A DNA stretch of 64,000 nucleotides from an uncultured Acidobacteriota bacterium. GTDB lineage: Bacteria; Acidobacteriota; UBA6911. A model generated the notes under the pieces. The model made no database searches, had not been told where the DNA came from, and saw only the letters and a program-made list of their open reading frames with translations. The stretch spans positions 608,001 to 672,000 of the forward strand of contig CAWEJX010000020.1 of assembly GCA_963809485.1 (NCBI GenBank). Reading direction: 5' to 3'. Both the position numbers and the translations under genes were made by a program. Positions 49,374 to 61,786 of this stretch are shown here, one piece after another. Numbering within the stretch: position 1 is the stretch's first letter; every line of letters starts with the position of its first letter.

Positions 49374-51218
49374 ATGAAAGATCTATACGTCAAAGAACGT
49401 GACCGCTCGCGCATCCCCGAAAAATACAAGTGGGATTTGAGTGAGATTTATTCCGATGACGATGCATGGACGGAAGCCAGGCGAGGGTTTGCAGCCGGCT
49501 TTGCCCGCATCTCGTCTTTCCGGGGCAGGCTGTCCGAATCATCGGATCAACTCCTGAACTGCCTCGAACTGGCAAACCTTTTCGGCAAGGAGTGCGCAAG
49601 GCTTGCCAGCTACGCGAGCATGAAATCCGATCTGGACACCCGCGACTCAAAATACACGGCAATGGATCAGGAAATGAGCCGCATAGGATCGGACCTTTCC
49701 GCGTTGACTTCATTTATCGAACCGGAAATTCTGAGAATCGGTCCGGAAAGGATCAACCTCTATATCGAGCAGGAACCGCAGCTTGCAGTTTACCGCCATT
49801 TTTTCGACGACATCCTCCGGAAAAAAGATCACACGGGCACGGAAGCCGAAGAGAAGATCATTGCTGAAGCCAACCTGATGGCCGATTCTCCGGCCAGCAT
49901 CAATACCATTTTTTCCAACGCCGATTTTCCCTTTCCGGAAGTAACGCTGGAAGACGGCACTGCGGTGCGCCTGGACCCGCCGGCCTTCAGCCTGCACAGG
50001 AGGTCCCCGGTCCGCGAAAACAGAAAAATCGTTTTCTCCGCTTATATGGGAAGCCTGAATGGTTTTCGCCGGACTTTCGGCGCTCAACTTGCCGCGGAAG
50101 TCCGGAAGAACATGTTTTTCAGCCGCGCTCGATCCTACAAAAGCTGCCTGGAACGCGCCCTCGATGCCAACAATATCCCTGTTGCGGTTTACCATAACCT
50201 CATCTCGGGAGTTCACGCGCACCTGGATACCCTCCATCGATACCTGCTTCTGCGCAGAAGGCTGCTGGGATTAGAAGAGCTTCACTACTACGACCTCTAC
50301 GCGCCGGTCGTCAAGGAACTCGATCTGAGCTTCACGTTTGACGAGGCCGTGGAACATGTGCTCTCCTCCCTTGCTCCGCTCGGGAAGGAGTATCAGAGCG
50401 TCGCGAGAACGGCACTATCCAACCGCTGGATCGACGTATATCCGAACGCCGGCAAGAAGTCCGGCGCCTACATGAACGGCGCAGTCTATGACATCCACCC
50501 GTATATGCTTCTGAACTACAGCGGCAAATATGACGACATGAGCACCATAGCCCACGAACTCGGGCATACCATGCACAGCTACCTCACCAACAGGACTCAG
50601 CCCTACGCGCTTTCCCACTATTCGATTTTCGTGGCGGAGGTGGCATCGACATTCAATGAAGCGCTCTTGCTGAACCATATGCTGGCAACCGAAATCCGGG
50701 ACGAAGTGCGGCTGTCGCTGCTGTGCAATTACCTGGACAATGCCCGGGCAACGGTCTTCCGCCAGGTTCAATTCGCGGAGTTTGAACTCAGGATGCACCA
50801 GGTAGCGGAAGAGGGTTCGGCACTGACCGGCGATCATTTAAACTCCATTTACGCCGAAATCGCCCGGAAGTATTACGGACACGAAAAAGGCATCTGCATC
50901 GTGGATGACGAAATACAGGCCGAATGGGCCTATATTCCCCATTTCTTTTACAATTTCTACGTGTATCAATACGCAACCTCTTATACGGCTTCTGCGGCAC
51001 TCTCCGGAATGGTACAGGCGGGAGGCGAAGACGCGGTCCGAGCCTATCTCAGTCTTCTATCCGCAGGCGGATCCGACTACCCGATCGAGCTTCTGAAAAA
51101 GGTCGGAGTGGACATGACCACGCCGCATCCTCTTGAATCGATGATAGTTCGTATGAACCAGGTCATGGATGAAATTGAAAAAATCGCATTCAGCCCCAGC
51201 AGTCCCATTTTTCACTGA
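49374..51218 (+). CDS. pepF: Oligoendopeptidase F (M3B)
   Basis: KYKWDL, GKKSGAY, HELGHTMH, AEVAST and HFFYNFYVYQYA. Confidence 0.95.
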   Translation: MKDLYVKERDRSRIPEKYKWDLSEIYSDDDAWTEARRGFAAGFARISSFRGRLSESSDQLLNCLELANLFGKECARLASYASMKSDLDTRDSKYTAMDQEMSRIGSDLSALTSFIEPEILRIGPERINLYIEQEPQLAVYRHFFDDILRKKDHTGTEAEEKIIAEANLMADSPASINTIFSNADFPFPEVTLEDGTAVRLDPPAFSLHRRSPVRENRKIVFSAYMGSLNGFRRTFGAQLAAEVRKNMFFSRARSYKSCLERALDANNIPVAVYHNLISGVHAHLDTLHRYLLLRRRLLGLEELHYYDLYAPVVKELDLSFTFDEAVEHVLSSLAPLGKEYQSVARTALSNRWIDVYPNAGKKSGAYMNGAVYDIHPYMLLNYSGKYDDMSTIAHELGHTMHSYLTNRTQPYALSHYSIFVAEVASTFNEALLLNHMLATEIRDEVRLSLLCNYLDNARATVFRQVQFAEFELRMHQVAEEGSALTGDHLNSIYAEIARKYYGHEKGICIVDDEIQAEWAYIPHFFYNFYVYQYATSYTASAALSGMVQAGGEDAVRAYLSLLSAGGSDYPIELLKKVGVDMTTPHPLESMIVRMNQVMDEIEKIAFSPSSPIFH

Positions 51219-51261
51219 TTGCCGACTATATTGTCCCGGCCGAACCTGCTAATATAAAAAA

Positions 51262-51528
51262 ATGCTCAAATATGCCCGGCGGATTATCATACTGATTGTT
51301 GGAATGACTGTTTTGCTGATAGGCGTTGCCATGCTCGTACTGCCCGGTCCAGCGATCGTCGTGATCCCGGTCGGCCTGGCGATCCTGGCAACGGAGTATG
51401 CCTGGGCCCGCCACTGGCTTAGGGTGCTCCGCGAAACTACGGAAAAGGGTGCCGAAAAACTGAAGCTGCGGGCCATGTTTTCGCGCAAAACCGCCTCGAA
51501 TCCCCAGGGCGCCGCCCGGGAGCAGTAA
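51262..51528 (+). CDS. PGPGW-domain small membrane protein
   Basis: LVLPGPAIVVIPVGLAILATEYAWAR. Confidence 0.85.
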   Translation: MLKYARRIIILIVGMTVLLIGVAMLVLPGPAIVVIPVGLAILATEYAWARHWLRVLRETTEKGAEKLKLRAMFSRKTASNPQGAAREQ

Positions 51529-51810
51529 AAACCCAAGAACCAGGAATGCGTTCCCTTCTCATGTAACGCCGATGTACGCTGACAGAAGCGCCGACACACG
51601 CTGAAAAAATATATGGCATTACACGGCCTGGATCAGCGCTGCACTTTCAGTGGCCGTCATGAAGCAGCCATCGATTTGGCTGTTTACACCACTAGTTCGT
51701 GTAATTTGCGGCCGTTTTTTATAAAATCCAGGTGTTAACCGATCGGGCAGCAGCTCAGGGACGAGGGAAGAATTTCCGGCGCATTCGGGCCGGGATCCAA
51801 GGTGCAGCAA

Positions 51811-54800
51811 ATGGCAGACTCACCGGTGAAGGCAATTGGCAGGCGCTGGCTAAGGCTGGCGGTGATCCTGCTGTCTGCGATCTTCGCAATCCTGGTATCT
51901 GCCTTTTTCCTCATCCAGACCCAAGCCGCAAAAAGCGCGCTCTTCCGCCAGCTGCAAAAATACCTGCTTGAAAGATCCGGAATTGAGCTTCAGGCTTCCG
52001 GTATCCGCGCGGACTTGATCCGGGGAGAAGCCAGCCTGGAGAATGTGACCCTCCGACATGTTTCCGTACCCGGGATGCCCCCGGTATTCAAAGCGGCCCG
52101 CATAGACATACGGGCGGACATTACCCGGCTGATTCGGGGCGTCCGCGAAATCGAGGTACTGAGGGTGACAGCGCCTGAAATTAACTACTTTGCAGACCAT
52201 TACGGCAAAAGCAATCTGCCTGAATCAAAATCCGGATCGGGGTCCGATTTCAATCTTTTCATCTCGCACGGCGAAGCAAAGGATGGAGTTCTGAGAATCC
52301 GGGACATCCGCCGCGGGATTGATTTGCAGCTTTTGAAATGGCAGATATCCGCAGACGGGGACAGCACCACACGCAGCCACCGCCTGGCCTTTGCCATCGG
52401 GCAGGAATCTACCTTCGAGTATGAGCCATACCGATTCCCGCTGCACGGACTGGCAGTACGGGCGGACCTGAAAAAAACAGGTCTTCAGGTGAATTCATTC
52501 CAGCTCGAGACCGATGGGATCCGGCTATCGGCAACCGGTCTTTTGAGCGGCTTGTCCAAGCCCGTTATGGACCTGCAGCTCAAGCCGGCTCTGGATTTGG
52601 ACAAAATCGCGCGTATTTTCAACCTATCGCCCAAAATTGAAGGCAATGTTTCAGGGAACGTATCCATCAGGGGGAACCTGGAAGATCTTCGGATCACAGC
52701 CCAGCTGAATGGCGCTTCAATAAGCGCAGCAGGATATGACCGTACAGCTTTCAACAGCACAGCAAGCGCCGAATGGTCCGCCGGCTCCAAACGGTTGCGG
52801 ATCCGGAACCTGGACCTCGCTTCGGTCGACGGATCGATAAAGGGAAACGCCGAGTTCTTTTTTGCGCCGGAAGCCGGCGTCAATTCCATCGAAGCGGACT
52901 TTCAGAATTTTGAACTTTTCCCTCTGTGGAAGATGGTCAAACCGCCTTTTGATCTGGCCAGCCGGGGTGCCGGACAGGCCGCACTCCGATGGAAAGGACC
53001 GTTTTCGGCCTCCAAAATATCCGGAAATGTCCGCCTCAATCTCTCGGCGTCCCGCACGGCTCCGGATCTGAATGTTCTGCCGATTTCGGGGAAAATCGAT
53101 GCCAAAATTCAATCAGGCCGCATTGAGGCCAATCTGAGTTCTATCGGGGTTCTGGATTCTCAGGTAAGCGGCCGGGTATCCCTGCGTTCTTTCAGGGAAA
53201 TCGAAGGCAGCATCCGGGGTTACGCACCGCACACGAATGCCATGATGACGCAGCTTTCCCAATTCCTCGGCGGAAGCGGCAGCTTTCTCAGGGACCTCCG
53301 GATGGCAGGCCCGGTTGAATTCCTGGCCTACGCCAGCGGACGATTGAAGCAGCCGAAGTTCGTCATTTCCGCGGATGCTCCCGATCTGCAGATCGGGGGA
53401 TTGGCAGGCACAAGGGCGACTGCCGGCGCAACCATTGAGGGCCCCCATATTTCTTTCGACAGCGCTCTCACACTGCCCGGCAATTCCCTCTCTTCCGTCA
53501 AGGGAACCATGGACCTCGCCGGACCCAAGCCTCTGCTGGATCTGGAAGCTCGCACAGAAAGAATTCAGGCGGCCTCGATTCTGTCTATCCTGGGGAGCGA
53601 AGTACCCGTGGAGGGTTTTTTCGACGCGGAGCTGCAATTGAACGGAAATTTGGACGGCCTGGCCGGCACGGCTCAGGTTGCAGGCACCGAATTGCTTCTA
53701 TACCGGGAACCGCTCGGGCGACTGGATGCAGGTCTGAAAATTTCCGGCACCAAAATAGAATCCACCCAAATCAGGTTGCACCAGAATCCGGAAAACCCCG
53801 AGGCCGGCATCCTCGACGCAGACTTCGCCTACGACCTGGATTCCGGCCAATTCGAGTTTCAGGCCGACGGCAGGGGTATGTCCATCACGCAGCTCAAGCT
53901 GCCCGGGAGATACCCCGTACAGGGTGTTTTTGCAGTTGCTGCTTCGGGAACCGGAACACTCGATCAACCTTCGGTGGATATCAGTCTGAATACCGGCGAT
54001 GCGCACCTCCGGCAGATACCTCTCGGGCCGCTGTCTATTGAGGGTTCTCTGAGGGAGGGACAGTTCACAATCGGCGCCGCTGCTCCGCGTTTCAATATCG
54101 ACTCCACGGCTCAAATCGGGGTTCACGATCCATATCCCTATAGTGGTGAGATAAGGCTCGGGAATTCCGATCTATCGCTGCTTGGATTGAAAGGGGCAAG
54201 CGGACAGCTTCTGTCGGGCACTGTGGAAGCATTGGTCACTGGTTCAGGGAAACTGAGCGAGCCTTCAGCCGCACGCGTATCCGCCAGGATTCAGAGCCTT
54301 AAATTGGAGGCCGGAGCTCTGAATGTCCATACAAAGGGCCTCACAACAGCGGAATATCGGGACGGTTCGCTCGAAATCAGCCCTGCGGCAACGCTCGCCA
54401 GCGGGAATTCATCGCTTCAAATTGCCGGCAGGGTACCGCTAAGGCAGACGGCCCCGGACGGTTCTTTGACGCTTAAGGGCGAGCTCGATCTGGCTCAGGC
54501 TGCAGGATTTGCACCCACATCCAAGGGTTTCAACGTCACGGGCATCATGAACCTCGAGCTTGCATTGATGGGGAATCCTCGCAATCTGAGAGGCGAAGGC
54601 AGGGTAGCATTGGTCGGCGGAACAATGCAATTGCCAGGGATTTCAACGCCGCTGACGGACATAGGGCTCAGAGCAGACCTGAGGGAGGGCACCATTGTTT
54701 TGCAGCAGGCTGAGGCCGCCTGGGGTGACGGCAAAATAGCCTTGACAGGAGAATACCCGCTGGGCCTGCTGCCTCAAAATATCCCTGTCCAGTTCATGCG

Positions 54801-57800
54801 CAAGCAAGGTCCCGCCAGCTTTAATTTCGACCTGATGCGCATCCGGCCAGAGTCAACCGGGTTACTCCCGCCGGGAGTAACCGGATTGATTTCCGTGCAC
54901 GCCGCCATCCGGGCAGCAAGCCCGGACCTGCGCGCGCTCGACGCCAGGATTGACTTTGGCGAATTAAGCCTGCAGGTCAAAGGAGTCCCACTGAACCAGT
55001 CAGCGCCATCCACAATATTTGTCCGCGACGGAATTGCCTCCATCTCCAGTTTTTCGCTGAACGGGCCGGAAACACGCATCGATGTAGGCGGATCGGCCGG
55101 TATTCTGCCGGACGGCCCGCTGAACATAAAGCTGTCCGGGGACGTGGACCCCGGGCTGCTTTCGCTGGTAAAGGATCTGAAGGCGACCGGGAAACTTCAG
55201 GTCCAGGTTGTAACGGCCGGCACCTTGAAGTCCCCCACCTTTTCCGGACAGGTCGGAATGGACGGCGGGAGACTGAGCCTCCGGGAACCGCGCATCGTGG
55301 CCGACAGCCTGACTGCCCGCCTCGGCTTCACTCCGGACAAGATTTCCATCCAACGGTTTTCCGGCACCCTAAACGGCGGAATGGTGGACGCAAAGGGAAC
55401 GATCGGATATCGCCATGGAATCCTGAATGATTTCGACGTAAAGGTAAATTTTCAGGATTTTTTCCTCGACTTCCCCAAAGGTTTGAAATCGGCTTCCAAC
55501 GGAAATCTCACAATCACGTCAGCGGGAGAAGCGATCCTGGCGAGCGGAAATGTTCAGGTTCTGGAAAGCTCCTACAGAGAACCTTTCGCAGTCGGCGGCC
55601 AGCTGATGAGCTACCTGAAATCCCAGCAGATTATTTCGACAGCCAGCAAGACCCCTTCACTTCTGGATCGAATCCGCCTCGATATAACACTGCAGGCTGA
55701 GACGCCGTTGCTGGTGCAGAACAACATCGCTAGAGTGGAAGCGGATGCCAATCTCAAACTGGTTGGCAGATTCCGCGAGCCGTCGTTGATCGGTAGAGCC
55801 GCTCTTTATGAGGGCGGCGAAATAATCATGAATCAGCGATTTTATTATATCGACCGGGGAACCATCACTCTGAACAATCAGGCACGCATCGATCCGGAAT
55901 TGGATGTGCAGGCTCAGACCAAGGTAGGGGATTACGACATTACGCTCCAGTTGACGGGACCCCTCGAAAGGCTCGTGACCACATTAACATCAGAACCACC
56001 TCTCTCGGAACCCGATATCCTATCTTTGCTCCTGACGGGCAGAACAGCTTCGAACACAGAGGTACAAGGAGAGGAAGTCCGCATGGCCAGGACACAGGCG
56101 CTGTCGCTGCTTGCCGGGCAGGCGGGGGGAGAGATCGCGCGCGGCGCCCAGCAGGCGCTGCACCTCAGCACCGTTCGCATCGATCCGGGCCTGATTGCGT
56201 CTGAACCCGATGCGGGAACTTGGTTAACCCTGGGTGAGGATATCACCAAAGACCTGAGCTTTGGATACTCGATGAACCTGGTCAACGCAGGAGAACAGGC
56301 CTGGGCCGCTCAATATAAAATCACACGAAGGTTCACTACACAGGCCACCCGGCAGTCGGATAACGCCTACAGGTTCGAAATCCGGCAGGATCTGCATTTT
56401 GGCGGGGCGCCCGGATCCGAAGCTTCCAGGAAGACTGCGCGAAAATTCGTCATCGGCTCCATTGAATTCCAGGGCGGGTCTCCCTATCCCGACAAGGTTC
56501 TTCTGGACCAGATGAAAATCAAGCCAGGTGACAAGTACGATTTCGCAAAAATTCAGAAAGGGCTGGACGGCCTGCAGGAATTTATGACCAAAGAGAAAAG
56601 GCTGGAGTCCGATATAAGGCTTCACCGGGACACCGGACCGCAGACCATCGATCTGCGGCTGAACCTGGACCCGGGCCCTACTGTAGATTTTATATTTGAT
56701 GGGGCGTCCATTTCAAAAGACACACGGCAGAAGGTCGAGCAAGCCTGGCGCGATGGCGTTTTCAGCGTTGAAAGGCTGGACGAAGCAATACTGGCTATCC
56801 GCAGGCCCCTTCTCCGGGAAGGATTCCTTCAATCGGAAGTGACCTATCGGCTCGAGGCGGAAGACCAGCAAATACGTGTGCACTTCAAAATAACTCCAGG
56901 GCCTCGATTCACCCGCATCGAGCTCTATTTTCCCGGCGCCTCGGGAATCAGCGCCTCCGAACTGGACAGGATTCTGGAATGGGCCGATTTGAAACTGGAA
57001 ATCCATGCAAATCCGCAAAAGGTCGTGGATTTTCTTACAGCGTACTACCGGGAGCGGGGCTATCTCCAGGCCCGCGTGGAAACGCCCCAGCCGCAACTGG
57101 AACCGCAAACCGGAACCGGGAAAATCGCCGTGTCTATTGAGGAAGGGCCTCTGTTCCTGATCGGCGATCTGAATTTCAAAGGGAATCGGGTATTTGACTA
57201 CGATCAGCTTTGGAGTGTGATCCCGACTTCAAGCGGCAGCAGCTACGATCCCAATACGCTTCAGGATGCGATCCGGGCGATTGAGGATCTTTATCACAAA
57301 AACGGCTATAACGACGTTACCAGCACATTCCGCGTCGTCCAGGATTCCAGGGCCCCCCGCGCCCATCTCACATTCGAAATTAATGAAAACCGTCAGTCCA
57401 TCATCCGGGACATCGTCATTGAAGGGAATCGTGACACAAGTGAAAACTTCATCCTGAGGCAACTGGGGTTCCGGCTCGGGGAAGCCCTGGATTACCTGAA
57501 GGTCAATGAGACGCGAAAACGTCTCTACAACACAGGTGTCTACGCCCTGGTGGATTTCCAGACTGAGGAATTCCCCGCATCCGCGCCCGATTCAGCGGCA
57601 AAGGATGTGCGCATCCGCATACGGATTGAGGAGATCAAACCTTATCGCCTGCAGTACGGGCTATTTTACGATACGGATCGCGGGATGGGAGGTCTTCTGG
57701 AAGTGCAGGACCGCAACCTGATGGGCCAAGCATCAAATGTTGGTATGAGGATTCGCTATGATTCGGACCTGCAGGAAGGACGTCTATATTTTCATCAGCC

Positions 57801-58671
57801 CTTTGTCACGAAAATTCACGTCAGAACGGACGCAACAGCATTCGCGCTGAAGGAGGTTCGGCCGGCGTTTAATGCCCGAAGGATCGGGTTTTCTCTGTCC
57901 CGGGAAGAAAGGCTTCCGAAAGAATACCTGTTCACGTACGGCTACCGGTACGATCATGTGCGTTGGAACGGGTACCCGCCCGATCCGCAGTATTTTCAGG
58001 CGAGTGACCCTGTGGCGCGGGTCATCGGTACTCTGACACGGGATACAAGGGACAGCATCCTTGATGCGGCGCGTGGCGAATTTTCTTCGCACAGTCTCGA
58101 ATACGGACCGGAGTGGCTGGGGTCTGAAGTGGGTTTCATCCGTTATTACGGGCAATATTTCAGGTACGTGCCGCTGGACAAGTTTCTAAAAATCCAGAGC
58201 AAGGACAAGCAAGGACAGCCAGCTACGACGAAACTTGTTTATGCCGGCGCTTTACGGCTCGGATTGACAACTGCGTTCGAACACCAAACCGTCATTTCCC
58301 CGGAGCGCTTTTTCGCCGGTGGCGGCACGACCATGAGAGGATTCGAGCAGGATCTCCTGGGGCCGCAAGAAACTGTGGTGATCGACGGGAAAAATGTCCA
58401 AAGGCCGACTGGCGGCGAAGCCCTGTTTCTGTTCAATAATGAATTACGCTTCCCAATTCTGGGGATCCTGCATGGAGTCGGTTTTGCGGACATCGGGAAT
58501 GTCTATCCGAGAGTTTCCGACTTTGACTTCAGCATGCGCAAAACGGCGGGCTTCGGCCTGCGCCTCAAGATCAAGTTCATCCCTCTGCGCTTCGATTACG
58601 GGTGGAAGCTCGACCGCCGTCCGGGAGAAAGCAAAGGCGCCTTTTTCTTCAGCATTGGCCAGGCCTTTTAG
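51811..58671 (+). CDS. TamB (AsmA/DUF490) - POTRA - Omp85 (BamA/TamA) fusion protein, 2286 aa
   Basis: N-terminal TM anchor, long beta-taco region, DUF490 motifs (DPELDVQA, LTSEPPLSEPDILSLL), about 5 POTRA repeats, and a barrel with RFFAGGGTTMRGF and C-terminal FFSIGQAF. Confidence 0.88.
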   Translation: MADSPVKAIGRRWLRLAVILLSAIFAILVSAFFLIQTQAAKSALFRQLQKYLLERSGIELQASGIRADLIRGEASLENVTLRHVSVPGMPPVFKAARIDIRADITRLIRGVREIEVLRVTAPEINYFADHYGKSNLPESKSGSGSDFNLFISHGEAKDGVLRIRDIRRGIDLQLLKWQISADGDSTTRSHRLAFAIGQESTFEYEPYRFPLHGLAVRADLKKTGLQVNSFQLETDGIRLSATGLLSGLSKPVMDLQLKPALDLDKIARIFNLSPKIEGNVSGNVSIRGNLEDLRITAQLNGASISAAGYDRTAFNSTASAEWSAGSKRLRIRNLDLASVDGSIKGNAEFFFAPEAGVNSIEADFQNFELFPLWKMVKPPFDLASRGAGQAALRWKGPFSASKISGNVRLNLSASRTAPDLNVLPISGKIDAKIQSGRIEANLSSIGVLDSQVSGRVSLRSFREIEGSIRGYAPHTNAMMTQLSQFLGGSGSFLRDLRMAGPVEFLAYASGRLKQPKFVISADAPDLQIGGLAGTRATAGATIEGPHISFDSALTLPGNSLSSVKGTMDLAGPKPLLDLEARTERIQAASILSILGSEVPVEGFFDAELQLNGNLDGLAGTAQVAGTELLLYREPLGRLDAGLKISGTKIESTQIRLHQNPENPEAGILDADFAYDLDSGQFEFQADGRGMSITQLKLPGRYPVQGVFAVAASGTGTLDQPSVDISLNTGDAHLRQIPLGPLSIEGSLREGQFTIGAAAPRFNIDSTAQIGVHDPYPYSGEIRLGNSDLSLLGLKGASGQLLSGTVEALVTGSGKLSEPSAARVSARIQSLKLEAGALNVHTKGLTTAEYRDGSLEISPAATLASGNSSLQIAGRVPLRQTAPDGSLTLKGELDLAQAAGFAPTSKGFNVTGIMNLELALMGNPRNLRGEGRVALVGGTMQLPGISTPLTDIGLRADLREGTIVLQQAEAAWGDGKIALTGEYPLGLLPQNIPVQFMRKQGPASFNFDLMRIRPESTGLLPPGVTGLISVHAAIRAASPDLRALDARIDFGELSLQVKGVPLNQSAPSTIFVRDGIASISSFSLNGPETRIDVGGSAGILPDGPLNIKLSGDVDPGLLSLVKDLKATGKLQVQVVTAGTLKSPTFSGQVGMDGGRLSLREPRIVADSLTARLGFTPDKISIQRFSGTLNGGMVDAKGTIGYRHGILNDFDVKVNFQDFFLDFPKGLKSASNGNLTITSAGEAILASGNVQVLESSYREPFAVGGQLMSYLKSQQIISTASKTPSLLDRIRLDITLQAETPLLVQNNIARVEADANLKLVGRFREPSLIGRAALYEGGEIIMNQRFYYIDRGTITLNNQARIDPELDVQAQTKVGDYDITLQLTGPLERLVTTLTSEPPLSEPDILSLLLTGRTASNTEVQGEEVRMARTQALSLLAGQAGGEIARGAQQALHLSTVRIDPGLIASEPDAGTWLTLGEDITKDLSFGYSMNLVNAGEQAWAAQYKITRRFTTQATRQSDNAYRFEIRQDLHFGGAPGSEASRKTARKFVIGSIEFQGGSPYPDKVLLDQMKIKPGDKYDFAKIQKGLDGLQEFMTKEKRLESDIRLHRDTGPQTIDLRLNLDPGPTVDFIFDGASISKDTRQKVEQAWRDGVFSVERLDEAILAIRRPLLREGFLQSEVTYRLEAEDQQIRVHFKITPGPRFTRIELYFPGASGISASELDRILEWADLKLEIHANPQKVVDFLTAYYRERGYLQARVETPQPQLEPQTGTGKIAVSIEEGPLFLIGDLNFKGNRVFDYDQLWSVIPTSSGSSYDPNTLQDAIRAIEDLYHKNGYNDVTSTFRVVQDSRAPRAHLTFEINENRQSIIRDIVIEGNRDTSENFILRQLGFRLGEALDYLKVNETRKRLYNTGVYALVDFQTEEFPASAPDSAAKDVRIRIRIEEIKPYRLQYGLFYDTDRGMGGLLEVQDRNLMGQASNVGMRIRYDSDLQEGRLYFHQPFVTKIHVRTDATAFALKEVRPAFNARRIGFSLSREERLPKEYLFTYGYRYDHVRWNGYPPDPQYFQASDPVARVIGTLTRDTRDSILDAARGEFSSHSLEYGPEWLGSEVGFIRYYGQYFRYVPLDKFLKIQSKDKQGQPATTKLVYAGALRLGLTTAFEHQTVISPERFFAGGGTTMRGFEQDLLGPQETVVIDGKNVQRPTGGEALFLFNNELRFPILGILHGVGFADIGNVYPRVSDFDFSMRKTAGFGLRLKIKFIPLRFDYGWKLDRRPGESKGAFFFSIGQAF

Positions 58672-58891
58672 CGGGCATTCCTCCCACGATTTCGAGACGA
58701 GGGGGCGCGATAGGCCTGTATCCAAGGCGCAGGATTTTTGAAAAGAACCCTCCGGATCCAATGAGTAGCTGCTTCGAGGACATCCCAAAACGGCTGTCGT
58801 CCCTTTGCCCCTCGACCCCTTGGATCCTTCGTTCCTTGGATCCTTGGATCCTTCTTTCAGCGGCCTCTCCCTCAACTGCGCAGCCTGTGGA

Positions 58892-61786
58892 CTACTTTTG
58901 GTATTCCTCGACCGGAGGGCAGACGCACACCGGATTGCGGTCCCCGTAAACATTGTCGATCCGCCCCACCGGCGGCCAAAATTTCTGCTCACGCGTCCAC
59001 GGCGCCGGCAAGGCCGCCTCCTGACGAGTATAGGGATGGCGCCATGCCTCGACCAGCAGGGACGCGGCGCTATGCGGAGCATTTTTGAGCAGGTTGTCCT
59101 GCGAATCCGCCTTGCCCTGTTCTATTGCGGAAATTTCGCCGCGTATCGCTATCATCGCTTCGCAGAAACGGTCGAGTTCCTCCCTGGACTCGCTCTCGGT
59201 CGGCTCGACCATCATGGTGCCCGGTACGGGGAAGGAGACTGTCGGAGCGTGAAAGCCATAATCCATCAACCGCTTTGCCACGTCATCGACCTCGATGCCC
59301 GCGCTTTTTTTCAAAGACCGCAGATCCAGGATGCACTCGTGGGCGACAAATCCGTGCGCGCCCTTGTAAAGGACAGGGTAGTAGGGATCGAGTCTCTTCG
59401 CTATGTAATTGGCGTTGAGAATCGCATAGCAGGTGGCCTCCTTCAGACCTTCGGCACCCATCAAGTCGATGTAGGCCCAGGAGATGGGCAGAATTCCGGC
59501 ACTGCCCCAGGGTGCGGAAGAAACGGCTCCTACTCCGTCTTGGCCGCCGGTTGCGATGACAGAATGCGAGGGCAAATAGTCCGCCAGATGGGAAGCAACC
59601 GCTATGGGCCCCACGCCGGGGCCGCCGCCGCCGTGCGGGATGCTGAAGGTTTTGTGCAGGTTCAGATGGCATACGTCCGCCCCGATCTCCGCGGGGCGGC
59701 ACACACCGACCTGCGCATTCATGTTGGCGCCATCCATATAGACCTGGCCGCCGCAGGCATGGATGATCTCGCAGATCTCATGGATGGCCTCCTCGAAAAC
59801 GCCGTGGGTGGAGGGATAAGTGACCATGAGCGCAGCCAGCTCTTTCTGATGCTTCGCGGCTTTATCTCTGAGGTCCGCCAGATCGATGTTGCCGTTTTCG
59901 TCGCATGCCACGACTACAACTTTCAACCCGGCCATTACGGCGCTGGCAGGATTTGTTCCGTGGGCCGATTGCGGAATGAGACAGACGTCCCGATTCCCTT
60001 CTCCCCGCTTTTCGTGATATCTGCGGATCACCAGGAGCCCGGAATATTCGCCCTGCGAACCAGCATTCGGCTGCAGGGAAACCGCAGGCAGTCCGGTTAT
60101 ATCGCCAAGCCAATCCTGCAGCTGCTTGAACAGCTGCTGATATCCTTTCGCCTGGTCCGGCGGCGCGAACGGATGGATTCTGCTGAATTCCGGCCAGGTG
60201 ATCGGAATCATTTCCGCCGTCGCATTGAGCTTCATTGTGCAGGAGCCAAGGGGGATCATCGATGCATTGAGCGCGAGGTCGCGGCTTTCCAGGCGGTGCA
60301 CGTAGCGCAGGAATTCCGTTTCCGAGCGATGACGATGAAACACAGGGTGCGTCAGATAGGAGCTTCTGCGCGCAAGCGGTTCCGGGTATTCGGGTGGAGC
60401 CTGATTCATCAGATCATCCAGCTCGAAGGCTACCGGACCGGGCGGCGAAAAAACCGAAAGCAAATCCGTAAGATCTCCGGCTGAGACGGTCTCATTCAGG
60501 CTGATGCCGATTACGGTTTCATTCAAGCGACGCAGATTCATGCCCCGCTTTTGCGCCGAGTCCAGCAGCCGCTCCGTATCCAAGGGACCGGTTTCCACAT
60601 ATAGAGTGTCGAAAAAAGGATCGGGCCCGATTTTGAAGCCAAGTCTTTTCAATCCCCGTCCAAGAACTGCTGTAAGAAAATGGATGCGCTGGGCAATCTT
60701 CTTCAGTCCATCGGGACCGTGATATACGGCATACATGCTTGCCATGATTGCCAGCAGAACCTGGGCGGTGCAGATGTTGCTCGTGGCTTTATCGCGGCGG
60801 ATGTGCTGCTCCCGGGTCTGCAGGGCCAGGCGGACCGCAGAGTTACCCAATGCGTCTTTGGATAAGCCGACGATGCGCCCCGGCATCTGCCTTTTGTAGT
60901 TTTCGCGAGTCGCAAAAAATGCGGCATGCGGCCCGCCGTATCCCAGGGGGACGCCAAATCGCTGCGAATTCCCGACCGCAATGTCCGCGCCGAATTCTCC
61001 GGGAGGTCGCAGCAGCGTCAGCGCCAGCAGGTCGGCGGCAACCGTAACCAGAGCGCCTGCCTGATGCGCTCGTTCCACAAAACCGGAGTAGTTCGCAATT
61101 GCGCCGTCGTTTGCAGGGTATTGCAGCAAAGCGCCGAAAACGGATGGGACAAAATCGAAGGTCGCATGGTCTCCGACTATGACCTGGATTTCCCGGGCTC
61201 GGGCACGCGTCCGGACCACTTCAATAGTCTGGGGATGGCACGCCTCCGAAACAAAAAATGCGTTGCCCTCGGTTTTGGAGAGGCTGAAGCTCATGCTCAT
61301 CGCCTCTGCCGCGGCGGTTCCCTCGTCCAGAAGCGACGCGTTGGCGATATCGAGAGCCGTCAGGTCCGCGATCATCGTCTGAAAATTCAAAAGAGCTTCG
61401 AGCCGTCCTTGCGCGATTTCTGCCTGATAGGGGGTGTATTGCGTATACCATCCCGGGCTCTCAAGGATGTTCCGCTGAATGACGGGCGGGGTGATACAGT
61501 CGTGATATCCCATGCCGATGAATGAGCGAAGGATCCGGTTCTGCGAAGCTATATCCCGCAGCCGCTCAAGCATCGAATATTCACTGTGGGGATCGCCGAT
61601 TCGAAGAATTTCCGGCAGGCGGATGGATGGAGGAACCGTCTTTTCAATCAAAGCCTCCATCCCGTTCAGTCCCAGGAAATCCAGCATCTCCCGGGCATCT
61701 TCCGGCCGGGGACCGATATGTCTGCGGACAAATAAATCGGTTGTTTCATGAGCATTCATGACAGTATTTTTTGGTGACATAGTCAT
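58892..61786 (-). CDS. gcvP: Glycine dehydrogenase (decarboxylating), single-chain P protein
   Basis: [41 protein letters not shown] and DYGFHAPT. Start may be 61786, 61780 or 61759. Confidence 0.97.

Follow-up and report, generated by a model that had tools for sequence, protein, structure and literature searches.

The window analysed here is a 64,000-nucleotide stretch from an uncultured, soil-type Acidobacteriota bacterium (assembly GCA_963809485.1, contig CAWEJX010000020.1, positions 608,001 to 672,000 of the forward strand). At positions 51811–58671 it contains an intact one-gene fusion of TamB, POTRA domains and an Omp85 barrel. In studied bacteria the inner-membrane protein TamB and its outer-membrane barrel partner are two separate proteins. 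All elements that make up a translocation-and-assembly module (TAM) are kept in the same order in the fused gene. A permanently tethered TAM is the most economical reading of its sequence, and we consider it likely that the gene encodes such a natural single-chain module.

Architecture of the fused gene and its junction

The gene is a single open reading frame (ORF) on the + strand that begins at ATG 51811, or alternatively at GTG 51802, and ends with a stop at 58669–58671. Counted from the ATG it has 2286 codons plus the stop, and the frame is open over 6.9 kb with no internal stop; full-length homologues are conserved. A Shine-Dalgarno-like AAGGTG (51799–51804, + strand) can be read off the sequence 6 nucleotides 5' of the ATG. 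Promoter and terminator scans over 51150–59000 gave 3 and 8 matches, compared to 3.5 and 9.5 in shuffled sequence, and hence no excess.

All features of the gene lie on the + strand. Near its N-terminus the encoded chain has a hydrophobic segment (residues 14–36, 51850–51918), preceded by RRWLR, as a presumed inner-membrane signal anchor. The five best Kyte-Doolittle 19-residue windows in the whole protein all begin at residues 14–18, and with strongly hydrophobic windows confined to this segment there is one candidate membrane anchor, at the N-terminus. The TamB/AsmA-like, presumably periplasm-spanning body that follows (residues 37–1181, 51919–55353) is recognized by the family profile and by weak matches to the DUF748 and AsmA N-terminal Pfam models, both under cut-off. 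The DUF490 or TamB C-terminal domain (residues 1182–1517, 55354–56361) is a clear member of PF04357 (E 5.6e-39, 134.9 bits against a cut-off of 22.4), and the TamB part closes with a β-signal-like strand, YRFEIRQDLHF (56368–56400). Behind a short linker come five POTRA domains (residues 1546–1941, 56446–57633), identified by the fold model, TIGR03303, Foldseek and Pfam PF07244 (2.1e-41, 140.9 bits in four stretches against a cut-off of 21.3), and an Omp85 β-barrel (residues 1945–2286, 57643–58668) whose strands are seen in the fold model and which matches PF01103 over residues 1969–2286 (1.2e-37, 130.7 bits against a cut-off of 24). The barrel contains the loop-6 RGF motif (residues 2176–2178, 58336–58344) and ends in the β-signal FFFSIGQAF (58642–58668), the last residue being the C-terminal Phe. 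In an alignment of 76 fused sequences the R, G and F of the loop-6 motif and the S, G and Q of the SIGQAF tail are invariant and the rest of the tail is conserved. With barrel and POTRA domains above their cut-offs and the loop-6 RGF in place, the second half belongs to the Omp85 superfamily.

The equivalog models place the protein outside the families they define. The NCBIfam BamA model TIGR03303 spans 1–741 of its 741 positions on residues 1546–2286, but the 263 bits are below the cut-off of 297.15; in addition, a closer canonical BamA is found on contig C1 and the fused halves form a separate clade, so the protein is not a BamA equivalog. Nor is it a TamA equivalog (NF047950, 56.2 bits against 625, and five POTRA domains rather than three) or a proteobacterial TamB equivalog (NF047952, 31.2 bits against 825). 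TAM as defined consists of two subunits, each with its own export signal, whereas here there is a single ORF with nothing of the kind at the joint.

The TamB part finishes ...AYRFEIRQDLHF at nucleotide 56400. It is followed by the 15-residue linker GGAPGSEASRKTARK (residues 1531–1545, 56401–56445, + strand) and then by the first POTRA strand, FVIGSIEF. The linker is polar, is modelled at a predicted local distance difference test (pLDDT) value of ~54, and has no stop, no in-frame start codon and no hydrophobic run, which leaves no second signal peptide at the joint. A preliminary description of this DNA had reported an uninterrupted frame running from anchor through TamB, DUF490 and linker to POTRA domains and barrel, with a DUF490 end near 56400 (...FEIRQDLHF), about five POTRA repeats, a loop-6 motif and terminal Phe, and neither a stop nor a second signal peptide at the junction. 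The ORF, the Pfam and NCBIfam matches, the fold model and the linker sequence agree with it on each of these points. The structure prediction and hidden Markov model scan that it had proposed as checks were run, and both agree with TamB followed by five POTRA domains and a barrel.

The fold model covers residues 1180–2286 and was built with 34 aligned sequences (mean pLDDT 75.8, predicted template-modelling score 0.57). From the N-terminal side it consists of β-strands, two to three helices, six strands, a low-confidence linker, five POTRA units of β-α-α-β-β topology and a barrel; the modelled TamB part, residues 1180–1530, is β-rich. The top Foldseek matches are full-length BamA chains (E ~1e-41, ~800–845 aligned columns). 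TM-scores are 0.37–0.40 for substrate-engaged or hybrid BAM states compared to 0.32–0.36 for most others, and we do not count this difference as evidence.

Comparison of 76 fused proteins shows which properties of the joint are retained. The linker is 13–35 residues long with a median of 15 (13–17 in 65 of the 76), rich in R, G, A and S, and free of hydrophobic runs in every case (0/76). The last TamB strand ends in F in 56 sequences, in L in 15 and in another residue in 5, and is directly followed by Gly in 76 of 76. The joint is conserved as ...YRFEFRHDLRF-GG-variable-IGxIxF. When the TamB half is aligned by BLAST to separate TamB proteins, the alignment reaches to within 0–6 residues of their end in six of nine, and stops 16 residues short in the relative G025. 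The half thus aligns to the free C-terminus of separate TamB, and the fusion point, after the strand YRFEIRQDLHF, is the native TamB end.

These properties bear on an alternative in which the product would be a polyprotein. A periplasmic protease would cut the linker to give an ordinary, separate TamB and Omp85, and the fusion would serve only to export the barrel without a signal peptide and to fix a 1:1 ratio. A polar, basic, poorly conserved linker of low model confidence suits an exposed cleavage site, and the TamB part stops where free TamB stops, with a β-signal-like strand that normally has a free C-terminus. However, no conserved cleavage motif is found beyond the invariant Gly after the last strand, and the tight linker length looks more like that of a structural tether. 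We consider such processing unlikely.

Conservation and origin of the fusion

The fused gene is real, conserved and old, and not an assembly artefact. A stop or indel in reads over the junction was one of the findings that the preliminary description had named as refuting, and contigs from three independent public metagenome runs span the junction with neither. The contig from run X1 covers 56256–56482 with 0 differences and that from run X4 covers 56320–56533 with 1 difference. The contig from run X2 (56372–56888), which is a more distant relative, has 48 differences and a +1/–1 indel pair at ~56669–56679, well beyond the junction. The listed sequencing runs include none that is marked as RNA. 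Contigs from run X19, which is only guessed to be RNA, cover 56564–56837 and fall short of the junction. No run contains more than 41% of the sampled words, which implies that the contigs derive from relatives or low-coverage copies and not from the source sample in bulk.

A mis-assembly, a base lost between two genes or a decaying pseudogene would be another way to account for the long frame, and likely single-base indels are indeed present in other envelope genes of this genome. The canonical bamA (G000:C1:~149222-151808; L001 81..2667) is broken up into a pair of overlapping ORFs, 320 and 582 residues long, and the BamA of a relative aligns over its residues 1–291 and then, in another frame, over 292–861. 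The change of frame lies near L001 953–955, just after GGGGG, and is probably a one-base assembly indel. An AsmA-like gene (G000:C7:326449-328144; PF05170 matched at the N-terminus with 66 bits) is likewise broken up, into overlapping frames of 200 and 432 codons, likely by a second such indel. Against an artefact at the fusion itself stand the three independent runs that bridge the junction, the 6.9 kb of open frame and the retention of the fusion over 35 coded families, and we regard an artefact or a dead gene as very improbable.

A protein search with residues 1380–1780 gave 213 proteins at E ≤0.001; the following figures cover the 120 that were listed, including the query. TamB and POTRA domains occur together in 119 of the 119 other listed protein clusters, and 116 of these also contain Omp85, the three without it being shorter entries of 1348–1974 residues. 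Most listed homologues have 2050–2375 residues and are 37–82% identical to the query over the junction; the architecture persists in the 119 clusters at identities of 36–87%. Within the genus, a match that crosses the junction and lies in a long open frame is present in 16 of 24 genomes. For the phylum Acidobacteriota, evenly sampled, a junction-spanning match is found in at least 87 of 401 genomes from 35 coded families, a count tallied by hand from the rows, 190 weaker ones apart, that takes in the window's own genome and the unpublished G186 (86 without the latter). The genus and phylum tallies include the unpublished genomes G034, G063 and G186, of which only G186 has a junction-spanning match. 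Over the 35 coded families the fusion persists at identities as low as ~25%, and the joint has no signal peptide. The preliminary description had proposed a search of related genomes for the fusion and for the separate genes, and had suggested that homologues always split into two genes would refute it. The search shows that the fused form is retained throughout the phylum.

When one genome per species was scanned, 522 of 598 pattern matches proved to be relatives, and 80 of these loci, all from metagenome-assembled genomes, were retained. Among these 80 of 522 loci residues 1–1107 are matched fully in 70 and from residue 5–88 onwards in six more, and all of these 76 cross the junction. Their titles name Bryobacterales/Bryobacteraceae, Solibacteraceae, Ca. 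Solibacter, Ca. Sulfopaludibacter, Terriglobia and Luteitalea. In a comparison with five fused relatives the TamB body aligns from residue 5 or 12 in three and from residues 220–253 in the two shorter ones. One full-length fusion is labelled as uncultured Bifidobacteriaceae (L094, CAZDLW010000008.1). We do not take it as a case outside the Acidobacteriota, since the other named hits are acidobacterial and this metagenome-assembled genome is likely mis-binned or mislabelled. Two fused paralogues per genome occur in G009 in the genus and in G301, G390, G154, G094, G079, G047 and G080 in the phylum.

POTRA-bearing Omp85 proteins of the genus relatives fall into three classes: canonical BamA (860–883 residues, ending KFTVGRSF or KFTIGRSF), a second BamA encoded beside a separate tamB (BamA2; 931–1057 residues, ending ...GPPF or GPQF), and the fused form, which ends ...SIGQAF or SVGQAF. 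The separate TamB has 1298–1344 residues. The Omp85 half of the fusion aligns over its full length to BamA2, from BamA2 residue ~210–325 onwards, with 26–29% identity (E 1e-51 to 1e-75), compared to 19–23% identity with canonical BamA (E 1e-10 to 1e-25). In a quick maximum-likelihood tree of 31 rows, with support from the Shimodaira-Hasegawa-like approximate likelihood ratio test only, a midpoint root and canonical BamA as the sole outgroup, each class lies on one side of a branch: the fused form with 18 rows (support 98), BamA2 with 7 (98) and BamA with 6 (100). A branch with support 100 divides the fused form and BamA2 together from BamA. The composition of six rows is unusual, and the branch of G025_BamA2 is long. 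On this tree the barrel half is a clade of its own, sister to the TamB-operon BamA2 of Acidobacteria and not to canonical BamA. We therefore see in the fused protein an old paralogue of the bamA2-tamB pair of Acidobacteria.

More distant kinship is seen with the profile of the fused family, which matches E. coli BamA (5e-54) as well as both chains of the TAM structure 9xdc, TamA (9xdc_A, 1e-14) and TamB (9xdc_B, 4.1e-14, over TamB residues 609–942). DUF490 alone (residues 1100–1530, phmmer) gave no match among solved structures, and only the family profile reached TamB.

The split operon of two relatives (G012 and G015) has the order ychF, bamA2, an ORF of 236–252 residues, tamB, response regulator and histidine kinase. 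The ORF between bamA2 and tamB is at L016 4674-5384 and L019 4571-5329. The fusion is TamB-first and the split operon bamA2-first, and simple loss of a stop codon in the split operon therefore cannot yield the fusion. A different arrangement is found in G025, from another family of the same class. Its tamB ends ...KIKKRF TAA, and the codon that follows, in frame with tamB, is the start of a BamA2-like Omp85 gene that has a signal peptide of its own (abutment at L035, G025:C192, 4917-4922, reverse strand), in the same gene order as the fusion. The 2273-residue open frame of G025 was rejected as a fusion, being tamB, the TAA stop and then the Omp85 gene with its signal peptide. A signal peptide on the Omp85 half of split homologues, which the preliminary description had named as part of its refuting case, is present where homologues are split, with G025 as one example; the fused linkers have none (0/76). 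To judge from the sequences, the G025 type of arrangement is the kind from which loss of the stop and of the signal peptide would make the fusion.

Genome context and proposed working

The window's own genome has a single PF04357/DUF490 match, which is the fusion, and four Omp85 matches: the canonical BamA, the fusion, a patatin-Omp85 and a POTRA-less barrel. A tblastn search of this genome with relatives' proteins for a separate TamB or BamA2 matched only the fusion. On the same 1.36-Mb contig as the fusion, ychF (C20:885588-886697) is followed after 146 nucleotides by the response regulator. This site is intact on one contig, and the bamA2-orf-tamB block is thus cleanly missing and not lost in an assembly gap. 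With the split block absent from its conserved site, the fusion is the genome's only TamB and only TamA-like barrel. All 24 genus relatives (completeness 71–100%) have at least one form, with 7 fused only, 9 both and 8 split only. In this genome as in G012, the fused gene is flanked by pepF and by gcvP, the latter convergent; G006 and G018 share the downstream gcvP. No conserved partner gene was seen beside the fusion. As for the two remaining Omp85 proteins of the genome, the patatin-Omp85 is PlpD-like and has 742 residues (G000:C20:903924-906152; L003 235..2463), and the POTRA-less barrel has 432 (G000:C8; L004 1369..2667, reverse strand).

The distribution of the two forms raises the alternative of a specialized paralogue, which would have diverged from bamA2-tamB and would now serve a single class of cargo, such as an acidobacterial surface protein or lipid. 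The fused form is a clade of its own with long branches from BamA2, 9 of 24 genus relatives have the split pair beside it, several genomes have two fused copies, and its TamB part is ~230 residues longer than a separate TamB (1530 compared to ~1300 residues). However, where only the fused form is present, as in the window's own genome and in 7 of 24 relatives, it must cover any essential TAM role unless other AsmA-like proteins do so, one of which is on C7. No conserved cargo gene adjoins the fusion, whose neighbours are pepF and gcvP. Specialization of this kind seems to us about as improbable as cleavage of the linker.

In the single-chain TAM that we favour, the N-terminal hydrophobic segment would anchor the chain in the inner membrane and the remaining ~2250 residues would be exported by Sec. 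The ~1500-residue TamB-type groove would bridge the periplasm, and the DUF490 end would dock in cis, either onto the Omp85 barrel or into it, in the way that E. coli TamB docks with TamA. Between the DUF490 end and POTRA1 there would be a short, flexible and basic linker, and the barrel would be inserted by canonical BamA via the conserved C-terminal FFFSIGQAF. As the only TamB and TamA-like barrel in this genome, the fusion would cover the TAM role, in the form of phospholipid flow to the outer membrane and/or help with some outer-membrane proteins. The analyses establish the architecture with its conservation and kinship, and the absence of the split operon through loss; the topology across both membranes, the uncleaved chain, the docking in cis and the cargo are what we infer.

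Docking was addressed by predicting a complex between the DUF490 end (256 residues) and the Omp85 half (741 residues). The score was 0.49, compared to 0.00 for the best of three controls; contact agreement in the runs was at least 24% and partner pLDDT at least 56. The mark for this score was reached by 116 of 157 solved complexes and by 2 of 215 mismatched pairs, and a pass at a score of ≤0.60 is seen for only 18 of the 157 solved complexes plus both passing mismatches. The prediction gives weak support to an interaction between the two parts, and the pass may reflect likeness to a solved complex only.

Several observations weigh against a single-chain TAM that works as proposed. One of them is the weak complex score. 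Another is the geometry: in 65 of 76 proteins only 13–17 residues join the last TamB strand to POTRA1, which is the POTRA domain farthest from the barrel. If the TamB end is at the outer membrane, docked at β1 as in E. coli, we estimate that with a linker of ~15 residues the arm must fold back, or else the docking must be of another kind or occur in trans. Fused and split forms are found together in 9 of 24 relatives, and their equivalence may thus be incomplete. TQA-AK follows the N-terminal segment, which could therefore be a signal peptide that is cleaved off, and cleavage would remove the anchor. Finally, if the frame change in bamA were real, the general barrel insertase of this genome would be broken.

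The covalent joint and the geometry suggest one elaboration of the single-chain TAM. The association of TamB with Omp85 would be permanent and not cyclic, in an arrangement unlike that of the E. coli TAM: either the POTRA arm would double back beside the TamB groove, or each chain would insert its DUF490 strands into its neighbour's barrel, giving chained or ring-like assemblies across the envelope. We put this forward tentatively, as a possibility that is rather less probable than not.

If the fusion is a TAM, its occurrence in nature is relevant to current questions. How TamB docks at the outer membrane, and whether the hybrid barrel is a stable or a passing state, are under active study, as the available parts of two reports indicate (PMC12800296, PMC13119328). 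A widespread natural fusion that can stand in for the split pair speaks for a 1:1 unit that is stable. It would also be a ready-made single-chain target for structural work on the bridge from inner to outer membrane, and the sole TAM in genomes such as this one. Its biogenesis poses a question of its own, as the barrel would have to fold into the outer membrane with the chain's other ~1500 residues still tethered to the inner one. Because a single phylum contains split, abutting (G025) and fused forms, it offers a natural series for studying how such a fusion arises.

Comparison with known systems

The accessible parts of the literature on the E. coli TAM (PMC12800296, PMC13119328) describe TamB as anchored in the inner membrane, with a lipophilic groove that crosses the periplasm and a C-terminal domain of two helices and six strands. 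The last, β-signal-like strand pairs with β1 of the laterally open TamA barrel, and TamB touches all three TamA POTRA domains. Like the proteobacterial TAM in these sources (cryo-electron microscopy structures 9xdc/9xdd, PMC12800296; nanodisc structures, PMC13119328), the fusion combines a presumably anchored TamB and its C-terminal DUF490 with a POTRA-bearing Omp85 that has a barrel of the 16-strand type and the loop-6 RGF. It differs in being one polypeptide instead of two, in having five POTRA domains instead of three, and in the lack of a signal peptide on the barrel half.

No description of a TamB-Omp85 or TamB-BamA fusion was found in a search of the full-text literature, whose scope leaves out most subscription papers. 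The available portions of the 2014 Omp85 survey (PMC4104836) contain no mention of a TamB-Omp85 fusion, and those of the 2024 TAM review (PMC11014939) no wording on one. In databases the fused proteins have automatic names, 'TamB domain-containing protein', 'BamA/TamA family' or 'YaeT', and no paper on them was found. This matches the supposition in the preliminary description that such fusions might be annotated in related genomes yet uncharacterized.

The closest sequence relative of both halves is the acidobacterial bamA2-tamB operon, which shares its phylum with the fusion and, in 9 of 24 genus relatives, its genome as well. From the accessible text of Heinz et al. 2015 (PMC4494059), Acidobacteria have a second BamA in a BamA-TamB operon, with up to 7 POTRA domains and as the likely origin of TamA; the words 'fusion' and 'fused' are absent from that text, a check that extends to the text and not to the supplementary figures. 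In the operon, unlike in the fusion, the genes are separate and run bamA2, small ORF, tamB, the reverse of the fused order; the operon is absent from the window's own genome. BamA2 differs from the fused barrel half in its own signal peptide and ~210–325 extra N-terminal residues. New here are the clean loss of the split operon, the reversed order along with a split form from the same class whose genes abut, and the narrow constraint on linker length.

Other bacteria resemble the fusion in single respects, as far as the available parts of the sources describe them. Bdellovibrio has a split tamB-omp85 operon with a 7-POTRA Omp85 (PMC3983030). In Borrelia, TamB is partnered, as here, by a five-POTRA Omp85 of BamA type (PMC5582053, PMC11361582), but there the partners are not joined and the Omp85 is the canonical BamA, the only one of the cell, whereas the genome studied here has a canonical BamA besides the fusion. 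The LptF/G-LptA-LptD-like fusion of Thermotoga (PMC10160955) is also one polypeptide predicted to join inner-membrane, periplasmic and outer-membrane parts, in its case those of a lipid-transport bridge through the envelope; it belongs to the unrelated Lpt machinery and is likewise only predicted. Set beside these systems, the fused protein appears as a covalent, five-POTRA, single-signal form of a known machine, with a function that we infer from homology.

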